Shown here piece after piece: positions 8,374 to 31,767 of a DNA stretch of 32,000 nucleotides. A program made the translations under genes and the position numbers. Numbering within the stretch: position 1 is the first letter of the stretch; the number at the start of each line of letters is the position of its first letter. This DNA comes from Candidatus Saccharimonadota bacterium. GTDB lineage: Bacteria > Pseudomonadota > Alphaproteobacteria > CAJXXZ01 > 1604HC. The notes under the pieces are model-generated. The model had not been told where the DNA came from, did not search any database, and saw only the letters and a program-made list of their open reading frames with translations. The stretch covers positions 150,001-182,000 of the forward strand of contig NZ_CP043315.1 of assembly GCF_008189285.1 (NCBI RefSeq), written 5' to 3'.

Positions 8374-9321
8374 ATGAATAATCATAATAATATTTTTGAA
8401 TCATTTGATGTGGGGATTATAGGTTCTGGACCTGCTGGAATAAGTGCTGCATTATATTGCGCTAGAGCTAATCTGAAAGTTGTGGTATTTGAAGGGCCGC
8501 AACCAAAAGGTCAATTGATGACAACTACATCCATAGAAAATTATCCAGGATTTGATGAAGAAGATGCTAAATTATTGATGCAAAAAATGCATAAGCAAAT
8601 TCAAAACGCTGGATGTTTTTTAAAAAATGAAACTATTGAGAAGATAAATCCAAACAAAGGAAGTATTGAATTAAAATCAGAAAAAGCATTGTATAGCTGC
8701 AAATCAGTTGTTCTTGCAACTGGAGCTAAGGCAAAATATTTAGGATTGGATAGTGAATTTGATTATTTAGGATATGGGGTCTCTACTTGCGCAACATGCG
8801 ATGGTGCATTTTATAGAAATCTTGAAGTTGCAGTAGTTGGTGGTGGTAACACAGCAGTAGAAGAGGCTATATATCTTTCTAACATTGCTTCAAAAGTTCA
8901 TGTGATACATAGAAGAGAAACTTTTCGTGCAGAGCAAATTATGCAAAATAGAATGCTTGAAAAAGAAAATATTGTGATGCATTTAAATTGCACTTTGAAT
9001 GAAGTAATTGGAACCAAATCTCCAAAGCTTGTGACTGAGGCAAAAGTGCTGAATTTAATATCAAAAGAAATTACAAATCTTAAAATAGATGGAATTTTTA
9101 TTGCCATAGGCCATTCTCCTCAAACTGATTTGGTTAAAGGTTTAGTTGAGCTTGATAGCAGTGGATATGTTGCGTCGAACAATGTGAAGACAGAAATTCC
9201 TGGATTATTTGTTGCTGGAGATGTAGTTGATCAAGTTTACAGGCAAGCAATTACATCTGCAGGGCAGGGATGCATCGCAGGAATTGAGTCAATTAAATAT
9301 ATACAAGAAAATTTTAAATAG
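8374..9321 (+). CDS. trxB: thioredoxin-disulfide reductase
   Basis: GSGPAG (FAD), the CATCDG redox-active disulfide and GGGNTAVEEA (NADPH) are all present. Confidence 0.93.
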   Translation: MNNHNNIFESFDVGIIGSGPAGISAALYCARANLKVVVFEGPQPKGQLMTTTSIENYPGFDEEDAKLLMQKMHKQIQNAGCFLKNETIEKINPNKGSIELKSEKALYSCKSVVLATGAKAKYLGLDSEFDYLGYGVSTCATCDGAFYRNLEVAVVGGGNTAVEEAIYLSNIASKVHVIHRRETFRAEQIMQNRMLEKENIVMHLNCTLNEVIGTKSPKLVTEAKVLNLISKEITNLKIDGIFIAIGHSPQTDLVKGLVELDSSGYVASNNVKTEIPGLFVAGDVVDQVYRQAITSAGQGCIAGIESIKYIQENFK

Positions 9322-10742
9322 AATAATAATATAAATTAGTGAAATTAGAAATATAAATTAACACCATGATAAGACTATGATGAAATTTCGAAAATGATAA
9401 TAATAGAATTAATGAAATTTACAATGTAATTCAAAATAATTAGGAAATATTGCATTTAAAGCGCAATTTTAAAATAATTGCCAAATCAGTCATGTTTTCA
9501 TGTGAATATTTAGGTTAAATATTTCAAAACAATGCATTTTTTTCAGAAATTTTAAATTTTAATGAATATTTTCAAAAGAATCAGATTTTAGTTGTGAAAT
9601 TTATAGTGATTTAGCATTTTAAGTAGTTAAGATAAATAGCTCATATTTGTTGTTTTATAAATATTGATAATTTTATGAGTCAATATTTGCATGAGTCCTA
9701 ATAAAGCGTATTCACATGAGATTTTAATAATTTAACAGTGTAAAATATAATATAATAATAAATTTTTCAATAGATTTAAAATATACAAATGCATTTTTTT
9801 GACAAGCAATATCACGAAATATACTTGATTATTTAAGCGATGAATTGCAATATTGAATAGAAAAATGAGATGTTAATTTGACACTTATGAAATCTTAATG
9901 ATGCAAATACTCATTAATTATGTTGAAATAGTATTTATGGAAATAGATTTCTATGCATATGCAATGCGATTTTTTTTAATTTCAATTTATTCTTACGCTC
10001 TCAATTCCTTAAAATATTTATAATTTGAATCACTCTCAATTTTCTTTGTGAAAACCTTTCTTAAAAGTTTTTTGCATCGTATGGTTTAATAATTTATGAA
10101 TTAGCTATGTAGTCTGAGAAATAAAATTATGTATTGCGATGTAAGTTTATAGAGTAGGCAAGTTGCTGAAATAAATTAAGTGCACTTTGAGTTTAAAGGG
10201 CTAGTAATTTAGTTTAGTTATTTAAAAAATTAAATATTATTAAACTTTGAATTTTTTAATGCGCATTATCGGCAATATATTGATAAATTTAAAATTAAAG
10301 CATCTCTCCAACGTGCAAAATTTAAAGTATTGTTTCAATAATATTAAATTCCACATTATGACCTTAAATGCATAATGCGAAGACTGCAAATCAAGCTTTT
10401 GCTATATTTAAAATATCAAGCTTTTCATATATTTCTAATTTTTATGCATTTTGATCAAAGTGCTTAATGAGTATTATTTTTAATCATGCATATGATTTTG
10501 AATTTATATATTTTTAAAGACTTTAATCATAAGCTTTGAAAATATAAAAAGCAACTTATTGAAATTCACCTCATAAAATCTTATTGATATAAAACAACAA
10601 ACCCTTTAATTAAAATGCTAAGTTTATAAAGTATTAAATAATTTATTTATATAAAATTTAATTTTAAAATATGAAATCAATTAAAAATTATTTATGAATC
10701 TAGAAAAGGAACAAAATAATCTTAATTATATGAATTTATGAG

Positions 10743-11267
10743 TTATTGCTGAACTCTGAAAGGCATTAAACCTATGTATCTAGCTCTTTTAATTGCTTGA
10801 GACAAACATCTCATTTGTTTGGCGCTAATTCCAATGATATATCTAGAAAGTATTTTACCATATGGACTTATGAATTGACTTAAATTATTTAAGAATGCAG
10901 ATTCTCCAAGCATTAGCTCAGATTTTCTTTCCTTAACTTTTCCTTCAATTCCTAGAGTTAATCTATCAAGTGGTTTGTCAAATTTATCTAGCTTTACAAT
11001 TAAATCTCTCAAGAATTTATCATTAATATCTATAAGACGTTTCATGTCTTTTAATTTCAATGGATCTAAATTGAAATCTACAACAAAATAATGAGCTCTT
11101 GCATTTCTATTCATTTCATAAGCTGTTTTAGCAAGTCCGAAGTTTCTAACTCCGCCTAACTCACCATTGTTTTCTTTAATGTATTGAACAATTTTCTCAA
11201 CATGCAATTGCGCTTCATCAGCTGAGAGATTCTGCTCTAATGCACAAACTAATCTATAATTACGCAT
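10743..11267 (-). CDS. rpsF-rpsR: fused 30S ribosomal proteins S6 and S18 in one reading frame (174 aa)
   Basis: The N-terminal part (MRNYRLV...AHYFVVDF...DKFLRDLIV) aligns with S6 (E. coli MRHYEIV...AHYVLMNV...NDAVIRSMV). The C-terminal part (GKILSRYIIGISAKQMRCLSQAIKRARYIGLMPF) aligns with S18 (E. coli [34 protein letters not shown]). There is no stop codon between them. I set the start at ATG 11267, giving the canonical MR.Y start. Confidence 0.8.
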   Translation of the reverse strand: MRNYRLVCALEQNLSADEAQLHVEKIVQYIKENNGELGGVRNFGLAKTAYEMNRNARAHYFVVDFNLDPLKLKDMKRLIDINDKFLRDLIVKLDKFDKPLDRLTLGIEGKVKERKSELMLGESAFLNNLSQFISPYGKILSRYIIGISAKQMRCLSQAIKRARYIGLMPFRVQQ

Positions 11268-11305
11268 AACCACATAATAGCTTAAATTTATGCAAAGTAG
11301 AAGGC

Positions 11306-12352
11306 TTAATTAATATTAATATATTCTCTTTTTACTCTTGATCCAAGATTGCAAGTGATTTCCATTCCTTTGATTTTACTGTTCCAGTTAGCTATTTTTT
11401 CAAATGTTATATTTTCTCCAAGCAACTCTACTTTATCATCATTTAAATTGATTGATGTAACATCTAAAGTTAAGTAATCCATAGAGCATGATATAATTGG
11501 AGCGTAAGATCCATTAGTGAATGCAAATCCTTTCCTTATAGCGTATCCATCGCCATATCCTATATTTACTATTGCTATTTTTATGTCTTTTTGCGCTTGA
11601 TATCCCTGAGAATATCCTACATACTCTCCTTTTAAAACATTTTTTACAGATATTATGAAAGCTGTTAATTTTCCAACTGATTTAAGAGGTATATTTTTAG
11701 ATTGCTCATTTGACCCATATAAAAATCTGCCAATTCTAGACAATCCTTCATGATGTTTTTCTTCTAGCAATATTCCACATGATGAAGATAGGCTTTTTTT
11801 GCATCCTTGTATTTGATTGATTTTTTCTAACTGACTATTATTAGTTGAATATTCTTCATATCCGCATGCCAAATGATGCATGACAAAATCTATGCCAATT
11901 GAATCTAATATGCTTTTCATTTTGAAGAAATCATTTATATCTAATCCAAGTCTATTCAGTCCAGTTTCAATTTGTATAGAAATAGGTTTATTTTTATTGC
12001 ATTTTTTACAATGCTCACTCCACAGCATAATTTGCTCTTTATTAAAACATACAGGAATAATATTTCTAGACCATATTTCTTCAATTTCATAGTCAAAAAA
12101 TCCGCCCATAATGTATATTTTAGAATCAGATTCTTTGGACACATTAAATATCTCTATAGCCTCATTAATATCATTAACAAAAAAGCTCCTGCAATCAGTA
12201 TTATTGATAAGATGCTCAACAACTTTTGTCGCGCCAAATCCATAAGCATTGCATTTTACAACAGCTCCACAATGATTTACATTGCTTTTGATATAATTGT
12301 AGTTGTATGCAATATTTTGCAAATTGATTTGAAAGGTTGCGCTTTTACTCAC
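11306..12352 (-). CDS. alr: alanine racemase
   Basis: VVKCNAYGFG is the PLP-lysine motif. Length (348 aa) and overall pattern are consistent with Alr. Confidence 0.85.
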   Translation of the reverse strand: MSKSATFQINLQNIAYNYNYIKSNVNHCGAVVKCNAYGFGATKVVEHLINNTDCRSFFVNDINEAIEIFNVSKESDSKIYIMGGFFDYEIEEIWSRNIIPVCFNKEQIMLWSEHCKKCNKNKPISIQIETGLNRLGLDINDFFKMKSILDSIGIDFVMHHLACGYEEYSTNNSQLEKINQIQGCKKSLSSSCGILLEEKHHEGLSRIGRFLYGSNEQSKNIPLKSVGKLTAFIISVKNVLKGEYVGYSQGYQAQKDIKIAIVNIGYGDGYAIRKGFAFTNGSYAPIISCSMDYLTLDVTSINLNDDKVELLGENITFEKIANWNSKIKGMEITCNLGSRVKREYININ

Positions 12353-15014: not shown

Positions 15015-15749
15015 GTGCATCTGGTATATAATACAAGTAAATGTGGAGGTTTTTTGAACAAGAAAATTCATAAAATTCATATAGATAATTCAATTAAAGG
15101 AATCAATTTAATTAAAGAGTCTAATTTAGATAGTAAAATTATTGGATTTAAATCTGACGAATCTGTGTATGATTTACATACTGAGATTCCTGCTGGATCT
15201 GATGTAACCCCTTTGTACAGAGAAGATCATGAGTACATACACTTTTTAAGACACGATGCAGCTCATGTTTTAGCGCAAGCTTTAACATACATGTATCCTG
15301 CTATAAAATTTGGAAAACAGTTTTTCAGGGATGAAAATGTTTTTGGATTTGATGTGCACTTAGCTGGTTATGTTTTTACTGCATCAGATTTTTCTAAGAT
15401 TGCAGAAATTATGAGAAAAGTTGTTGCAAGCAAAGATAATATTATAAAGCATATTTGGGATAAGGAAAAAGCTTTAAGTTATTTTTCAAATGATAAGTTT
15501 AAACAAGATATAATTTCTAACTCTCCAAAAGAAAAAGTGACTCTTTATGAGCATGGCGATTATATTGATATTTGTGGAGGCCCTAGAGGCTTGAATAATG
15601 ATCATGTTGGGGAACATTTTGCTTTGTTGGAAATTGAAAGTTCAACATGGATGTATGATGATGAAAAGAATATGCAACGAATTATAGGAATTTGTTTCAG
15701 AAATAAAGATGAAATGGATGCTTTTATGAAAGAAAATAACTCCAAATGA
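15015..15749 (+). CDS. stand-alone ThrRS N-terminal module (TGS-like + N2 editing domain); candidate trans-editing factor
   Basis: RHDAAHVL, YEHGDYIDICGGPRG and MQRIIGICFRNKDEMDAFMKE align with E. coli ThrRS RHSCAHLL, FHEEYVDMCRGPHV and LQRIYGTAWADKKALNAYLQ. The ORF stops where the catalytic core would begin. The ORF-track start is GTG 15015. The in-frame TTG at 15054, preceded by GGAGG at 15045-15049, is a better candidate start. Confidence 0.75.
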   Translation: MHLVYNTSKCGGFLNKKIHKIHIDNSIKGINLIKESNLDSKIIGFKSDESVYDLHTEIPAGSDVTPLYREDHEYIHFLRHDAAHVLAQALTYMYPAIKFGKQFFRDENVFGFDVHLAGYVFTASDFSKIAEIMRKVVASKDNIIKHIWDKEKALSYFSNDKFKQDIISNSPKEKVTLYEHGDYIDICGGPRGLNNDHVGEHFALLEIESSTWMYDDEKNMQRIIGICFRNKDEMDAFMKENNSK

Positions 15750-31603: not shown

Positions 31604-31688
31604 GGAGGAATGGTCGAGTGGTTAAAGGCAGCAGGCTGTAAACCTGCCGACGGTGTCGTCTACGTAGGTTCGAATCCTACTTCCTCCA
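31604..31688 (+). tRNA. tRNA-Tyr (anticodon GTA), class II with long variable arm; CCA not encoded
   Basis: Hand-folded. The acceptor is ggaggaa/ttcctcc, the D stem gtc/ggc, the anticodon stem gcagg/cctgc with loop ct-GTA-aa, the 16-nt variable arm cgacggtgtcgtctac, and the T arm gtagg-ttcgaat-cctac. The architecture closely parallels E. coli tRNA-Tyr. Confidence 0.93.
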
Positions 31689-31695
31689 TACTTAT

Positions 31696-31767
31696 GCGGG
31701 CGTGGTTCAATGGCTAGAATGTCAGCCTTCCAAGCTGAAGACGTGGGTTCGACTCCCATCGCCCGCT
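31696..31767 (+). tRNA. tRNA-Gly (anticodon TCC); CCA not encoded
   Basis: Hand-folded. The acceptor is gcgggcg/cgcccgc, the D stem gttc/gaat, the anticodon stem tcagc/gctga with loop ct-TCC-aa, and the T arm gtggg-ttcgact-cccat. Confidence 0.92.

Follow-up and report, generated by a model that had tools for sequence, protein, structure and literature searches.

What happens to a ribosomal protein pair when its two genes become one? The proteins S6 (bS6, encoded by rpsF) and S18 (bS18, encoded by rpsR) form a heterodimer before they bind the complex of ribosomal RNA (rRNA) and S15 (PMC4647458), and the locus described here raises the question of whether a bacterium has made this pairing permanent. 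It lies in a 32,000-nucleotide (nt) stretch of contig NZ_CP043315.1 (positions 150,001 to 182,000, referred to below as the window), which is AT-rich (29% GC). A preliminary description had proposed that a single 174-codon frame at 10743-11267 of the window holds S6 followed by S18. The product of this frame is an exact match to an NCBI protein of Candidatus (Ca.) Cytomitobacter indipagum, where it is named "30S ribosomal protein S6"; UniRef likewise uses this name only. Ca. C. indipagum is a Holosporaceae endosymbiont of a diplonemid protist and has a 628-kb genome (PMC11909080); its host is Diplonema aggregatum (PMC5845003). As argued below, the fusion of rpsF and rpsR is genuine and kept by selection, and its product would probably be translated as one uncleaved chain and built into the 30S subunit in that form.

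The open reading frame (ORF) at 10743-11267 contains no in-frame stop under translation table 11 and encodes a polypeptide with a computed mass of 20.2 kDa and pI of 9.7; an alternative in-frame GTG at 11273, two codons 5' of the ATG, would extend it to 176 amino acids (aa). Domains were called with Pfam and NCBIfam hidden Markov models (HMMs) at their curated cut-offs, and each half scores on its own above them. S6, which had been placed in about the first 95 residues, is found there by PF01250 (Ribosomal_S6; residues 3-92, profile positions 1-90 of 90, 65.4 bits, cut-off 27) and by TIGR00166 (residues 1-94, profile 1-94 of 95, 57.8 bits, cut-off 42.9). S18 is found by PF01084 (Ribosomal_S18; residues 128-168, profile 12-52 of 52, 53.1 bits, cut-off 21) and by TIGR00165 (residues 127-170, profile 24-67 of 70, 46.8 bits, cut-off 38.75). 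Together, the ORF and these matches bear out the proposal of one frame holding S6 and then S18.

The AIKRAR motif of the S18 core is intact. Alignment to Escherichia coli S18 places K160, R161 and R163 opposite K60, R61 and R63, which hydrogen-bond C719 and C720 of 16S rRNA (PMC4647458); across 27 fused proteins R163 never varies, and K160 shows at least 90% conservation. An AlphaFold2 model was built on a 27-sequence alignment, with the interface between the domains judged from the predicted template modelling score (pTM) alone. The whole chain has a pTM of 0.83 and a mean predicted local distance difference test score (pLDDT) of 88.8, the latter reaching 94-98 in the S6 domain and 83-92 in the S18 core and falling to its lowest values, about 65, at residues 100-120. 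In the model the S6 half follows the strand and helix order E-H-E-E-H-E, that is, the ferredoxin-like beta-alpha-beta-beta-alpha-beta fold, and Foldseek superposes it on solved bS6 chains, 1g1x_A included, with template modelling (TM) scores of 0.81-0.93 relative to the target and a best root-mean-square deviation of 1.0 Å. This superposition accounts for about half of the query (TM score relative to the query of about 0.5). Because the whole chain nevertheless reaches a pTM of 0.83, confident packing of S6 against S18 is predicted, and from this model we infer a defined arrangement of the two domains. A profile search of all Protein Data Bank (PDB) sequences returned S6-only and S18-only chains and no chain matching both halves. 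On the 30S platform, bS18 and the C-terminally extended bS6 together form the lining of a groove beside the 3' tail of 16S rRNA (PMC7797042), so that the ends joined by the fusion are neighbours in the subunit.

The linker had been estimated at about 20 residues; the inter-domain segment in fact spans about 31 (residues 96-126). Its first half (…LDKFDKPLDRLTLGIEG) aligns with the C-terminal tail of split S6 proteins, and its second half, KVKERKSELMLG, aligns with the basic N-terminus of free E. coli S18, YFRRRKFCRFTA. Within the latter alignment, KVKERK stands opposite YFRRRK of the E. coli protein; this stretch is not covered by the HMM matches and has only a weakly basic character, and the linker has a pI of 6.3. 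The basic N-terminus of S18, thought at first to be missing, is therefore better described as degenerate, and the S18 moiety is nearly complete. An LDKxxKxL motif directly after the S6 domain is common to the four closest fused proteins, whose linkers agree in length to within 1-2 residues. The shared junction and linker length point to a single ancestral fusion event for these four proteins.

A comparison of fused and split states among relatives, which the preliminary description had suggested, showed the compact gene (169-174 aa) to be intact in five related genomes. The orthologue of Ca. C. primus has 172 aa and is 68% identical, that of the alphaproteobacterial metagenome-assembled genome (MAG) HK-STAS-PROT-4 has 174 aa (42-43% identity), that of Ca. 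Nesciobacter (now Ignotibacter) abundans 171 aa (35-38%) and that of Ca. Gromoviella agglomerans 169 aa (26%). Cytomitobacter, Ignotibacter and Gromoviella, whose genomes measure 590-628 kb, are grouped in the "fast-evolving Holosporaceae" (PMC11909080). The coding sequence (CDS) is identical between two independent C. primus assemblies, as it is between the Gromoviella assembly and a contig derived from the Sequence Read Archive (SRA), and at the DNA level no internal stops were found in the loci L001-L004 and L082-L084 or in the window. The search for loci with a four-sequence alignment relied on S6 patterns; most of what it returned were split S6 genes of Campylobacterales and Actinomycetota, which are unrelated, and C. 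indipagum itself was not among the loci recovered.

Comparison of C. indipagum with C. primus, between which synonymous sites are near saturation (proportion of synonymous differences, pS, 0.54-0.74), showed how unevenly the chain has changed. The S18 core (residues 127-174) is best conserved, with 87% amino acid identity, a proportion of nonsynonymous differences (pN) of 0.08 and a pS of 0.74; the S6 domain (1-95) has 66% identity, pN 0.21 and pS 0.54; and the linker (96-126) is least conserved, with 47% identity, pN 0.33 and pS 0.73. On these substitution patterns, both the S6 and the S18 moieties are judged to be under purifying selection.

Two observations complicate this picture. The first concerns the IDYKD motif, of which Y23 and K24 sit at the S6 interface in E. 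coli S18 (PMC4647458). C. indipagum, C. primus and MAG HK-STAS-PROT-4 have ESAF-LN in its place, whereas it is partly retained in Nesciobacter (IDY-LR) and retained in Gromoviella (IDYKN) and most other fusions; its loss in Cytomitobacter and the MAG may mean that the S6-S18 interface is relaxed or altered. One may speculate that the interface relaxed after the partners became tethered. The second concerns origin: the Gromoviella linker cannot be aligned with that of Cytomitobacter, so that the Gromoviella fusion may stem from the same event or from a separate one.

The low conservation of the linker, which is also the segment modelled with least confidence, would suit a precursor that is cut there to release ordinary separate S6 and S18 into the ribosome. 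We consider this unlikely. The four aligned linkers share no conserved cleavage-like motif and the neighbouring genes suggest no dedicated protease, while the compact trimming of both the S6 tail and the S18 N-terminus is what would be expected of a tether and not of a discarded spacer.

Separate S18 could also arise at the level of translation. Since an internal ATG (Met119) lies in frame just upstream of the S18 core, the preliminary description had suggested that it might start an S18-only product, in which case the gene would yield both the full-length chain and a free S18-like protein. The only element resembling a Shine-Dalgarno (SD) sequence for this codon is an AAGGA 16 nt upstream, which is equalled or bettered at 9% of the internal ATGs in the window. 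A missing SD sequence does not in itself argue against a start at Met119, because the genes of C. indipagum show no SD signal: mean duplex energy with the anti-SD sequence in the window is -2.0 kcal/mol at gene starts versus -2.5 kcal/mol at internal ATGs, and starts across the window (for example at 1844, 4975, 11267 and 12508) lack the signal. Initiation in this genome appears, on these sequence features, to be largely SD-independent. For the same reason the SD analysis of the fused gene itself, with a duplex energy of -0.9 kcal/mol at its start and no recognisable SD sequence in the 38-nt spacer before it, is uninformative. The idea fares worse on conservation. The codon homologous to Met119 is ATA in C. 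primus, TTG in MAG HK-STAS-PROT-4 (where an ATG stands one codon earlier) and GCT in Nesciobacter; start codons at or around this site are not conserved, so that a separate S18 product is not supported, and the conserved linker length and LDKxxKxL motif fit a translated tether. Two products from this gene thus seem improbable, and translation into a single chain is preferred.

It might be argued that the S18 moiety is a decaying remnant, as its degenerate N-terminus and IDYKD motif could suggest, and that S18 is provided by a separate, working rpsR at another locus. This is very improbable: no other part of the chain is as well conserved as the S18 core, which keeps its rRNA-contact residues, and a redundant rpsR would be unlikely to persist in so small a genome.

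How widely S6 and S18 are fused was determined by exhaustive search. A word-indexed search had returned only the protein itself and its C. primus orthologue; the rarity that this implied was rejected when phmmer, run against 1.84 billion representative proteins, recovered 47 further two-domain S6+S18 proteins among its top 150 matches. With two profile searches the collection grew to 185 proteins, in every one of which S6 precedes S18. About two-thirds of these (124/185) are longer than 190 aa, and at least 63 of the long proteins keep the start of S18 itself (M…RRRKxC), often preceded by a frameshift-like low-complexity stretch; they are mostly MAG singletons. In more than 100 predicted proteins of MAG-derived sets (200-316 aa; P0168, P0184, P0284-P0380 and others), frameshift-like Arg/Ala/Pro-rich junk replaces the S6 tail. 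Judged from these sequence features, the long two-domain proteins are probably artefacts of stop loss, frameshift or assembly; they inflate the count of the S6+S18 architecture and should not be counted as fusions. Although such proteins show that a stop lost or miscalled between in-frame rpsF and rpsR genes can create a false fusion in sequencing, assembly or gene calling, an artefact of this kind can be dismissed for the Cytomitobacter-type gene, which is compact, lacks the S18 start, and is intact in five genomes diverged to synonymous-site saturation and identical in independent assemblies.

The remaining 61 proteins, of at most 190 aa, form a compact class in which M…RRRKxC occurs in only 3. 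The marks of an evolved fusion, namely the absence of a stop, the absence of the M...RRRKxC start of S18 and the same state across independent genomes or assemblies, are all found in the Cytomitobacter-type gene. Several compact clusters recur across independent datasets: P0009 (8 members), P0008 (5), P0011 (5), P0077 (6 members on 14 contigs), P0099 (3 members, found on 7 contigs) and P0133, an NCBI "Gammaproteobacteria bacterium" protein (MDB2592682.1). For P0099, the nearest proteins to either half come from E. coli, Pseudomonas and Vibrio; P0099, P0077 and P0133 are compact fusions of gammaproteobacterial type. The nearest proteins to P0013 are those of Firmicutes and Bacteroidota. P0048, an unreplicated singleton from a single 1.4-kb contig, is of Bacteroidota type, both of its halves being nearest to proteins of Porphyromonas and Flavobacterium. 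As the compact fusions P0099, P0048 and P0013 are nearest to different lineages, the compact S6-S18 fusion is judged, from these affinities, to have arisen independently several times.

With compact fusions present in unrelated lineages, the gene is far less exceptional than the preliminary description implied. Full-text literature searches for an S6-S18, bS6-bS18 or rpsF-rpsR fusion returned nothing relevant, and the Cytomitobacter genome preprint makes no mention of ribosomal proteins or fusions. Some compact fusions are labelled 'ribosomal protein S6/ribosomal protein S18' in IMG. The fusion thus appears to be undescribed in searchable papers yet implicit in public protein databases.

Two further genomes indicate how the fusion came about. 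The first, the MAG Rickettsiales bacterium MSM10 (locus L005, 3001-3621), carries split rpsF (115 aa) and rpsR (87 aa) genes in the same frame: rpsF ends …NAA-TAA and is followed by four codons (12 nt) and then the rpsR ATG, so that a single substitution in the stop codon would fuse the two. A tblastn match to this locus over query residues 1-173 had made it a candidate fusion, rejected on account of the TAA between the genes. The second genome, that of an alphaproteobacterium (GCA_964277385.1, locus L084; 1.47 Mb, 27% GC), encodes a compact 185-aa fusion in the order fabD-fabG-acpP-fabF, fusion, a 314-aa ORF, rplI and dnaB. This is the ancestral neighbourhood, which confirms an origin in place. 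The 314-aa ORF between the fused gene and rplI (L084 3689-4633) has no Pfam domain. The fused loci verified at the DNA level are all AT-rich (27-33% GC, against 46% for the split L005), a sample too small for an association with low GC to be claimed, and those of known genome size come from genomes of 0.56-1.5 Mb.

The preliminary description had suggested that intergenic loss as a genome shrank could have hard-wired the S6:S18 heterodimer, and the 628-kb genome and five fused relatives support this. We propose an origin in place, in a common ancestor of Cytomitobacter and Nesciobacter within the fast-evolving Holosporaceae, where the rpsF stop codon and short spacer would have been lost first and the S6 tail and S18 N-terminus trimmed afterwards. 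In the resulting 20-kDa chain, S6 and the S18 core would each fold as usual, joined by a flexible tether of about 30 residues, and the chain would bind the central domain of 16S rRNA after S15 as a pre-formed "heterodimer" of obligatory 1:1 ratio. Such tethering would make both translational coupling and feedback through the rpsF leader unnecessary.

The coordinates of the fused gene, its parts and its upstream neighbour are collected in the table.

Table. Features of the fused rpsF-rpsR locus, in window coordinates
Feature	Coordinates	Strand	Basis
Fused rpsF-rpsR CDS	10743..11267	minus	174 codons from ATG, plus TAA stop at 10743-10745
bS6 domain, residues 1-95	10983..11267	minus	PF01250 and TIGR00166 matches, AlphaFold2, Foldseek
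Junction/linker, residues 96-126, FDKPLDRLTLGIEGKVKERKSELMLGESAFL	10890..10982	minus	alignment to split S6/S18 of L005 and to E. coli S18
bS18 conserved core, residues 127-174, including AIKRAR	10746..10889	minus	PF01084 and TIGR00165 matches
Internal ATG, Met119	10911..10913	minus	S18-only start proposed in the preliminary description
Spacer, alr stop to fused-gene ATG, 38 nt	11268..11305	minus	sequence
Alanine racemase gene (alr), directly upstream	11306..12352	minus	Ala_racemase_N and Ala_racemase_C domains

The fused gene is probably co-transcribed with alr, because the gap between them is only 38 nt and no terminator-like site was found. A promoter and terminator scan returned 3 sites, against 10 expected by chance, and no terminators, and no sigma-70-like site lies within about 370 nt upstream of the fused gene. 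Neither the rpsF_leader nor any other Rfam family matched the window at the gathering score, nor at E<=10 over 9300-11800. On the downstream side, the preliminary description was right that no rplI follows the gene, since 9322-10742 holds no ORF of more than 49 aa; the loci L002-L004 and L082 likewise lack a downstream rplI, and in L084 it lies two genes away on that side.

The region 9322-10742, an AT-rich 1.4 kb between trxB and the fused gene with no Rfam match, could be either a fully decayed gene or the site of a lineage-specific ORF. In C. primus the equivalent position is taken by a 394-aa ORF without a Pfam domain (L001 6561-7745), for which tblastn found no similarity in the window. 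Gene order around the locus (8374-12352 compared with L001 and L002) is rearranged: the fused gene follows alr in C. indipagum and gyrB in C. primus, where alr lies beyond trxB, and gltX, glyA, ileS, trxB and alr are nearby in both Cytomitobacter species. Elsewhere in the window, adjacent genes for tRNA-Tyr(GTA) and tRNA-Gly(TCC) on the plus strand at 31604-31767 are the sole RNA genes detected, and a 244-aa ORF with a GTG start (15015-15749) has no Pfam match at E<=1e-5 amid well-annotated housekeeping genes.

A more general scheme is possible, and we put it forward tentatively. In it, S6 and S18 would have been covalently hard-wired more than once: among Alphaproteobacteria in the Holosporaceae and at least one further lineage, in lineages of Gammaproteobacteria, and possibly in Bacteroidota-type and Firmicutes-like ones. 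With SD-dependent initiation and leader feedback already lost, the S18 N-terminus, beside the 3' tail of 16S rRNA on the platform, might have been at liberty to turn into a tether, and a single chain would then alter how cooperatively, or in what order, the platform assembles.

The fusion is a variation on two well-known proteins; it does not amount to a new kind of system, and it is not unique. S6 and S18 are a textbook case of ribosomal proteins obliged to pair before binding rRNA, and a natural single-chain version offers a ready test of how far pairing limits assembly of the 30S platform; it could also guide the design of minimal or engineered ribosomes. The annotation has a practical consequence as well, since surveys of gene content in Cytomitobacter, Nesciobacter and Gromoviella that rely on the name "S6" would wrongly score S18 as lost.

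Compared with the canonical bS6:bS18 heterodimer of E. coli and Thermus thermophilus (PDB 1G1X, 4YBB), the fused protein has the same two folds and retains AIKRAR. It differs in being one covalent chain, with a tether of about 31 residues made from the shortened S6 tail and S18 N-terminus, and in its altered IDYKD motif. The gene derives from the same adjacent genes as the rpsF-(priB/ssb)-rpsR-rplI operon, and the L084 fusion still stands upstream of rplI and dnaB. Unlike that operon, with its autoregulation by S6:S18 through a leader, the window has neither a leader RNA match nor a downstream rplI, and the fused gene sits 38 nt from alr among neighbours that differ even between the two Cytomitobacter species.

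In the mitoribosome, one metal cluster bridges bS6m and bS18m. There too the contact between S6 and S18 is locked more tightly, but the proteins remain separate chains joined by a cofactor and not by a peptide bond. Bridging [2Fe-2S] clusters are described in the human mitoribosome (PMC11791143). The compact fusions of other lineages share with the Cytomitobacter gene the order S6 then S18, a similar length (165-193 aa) and the loss of the S18 start, whereas their origins are independent and most of them keep the IDYK that Cytomitobacter has lost. The long MAG-derived fusions (200-316 aa) have the same Pfam pair on one predicted protein, but unlike the Cytomitobacter gene they keep the full S18 start (M...RRRKxC).

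In Rosetta-stone fusions, a few genomes join into one protein two interaction partners that most genomes encode as separate chains. The S6-S18 fusion is a typical case, here between core ribosomal proteins, among which fusions are to our knowledge uncommon; the Rosetta stone is a concept under which the S6-S18 fusion falls, and not a family to which it belongs.

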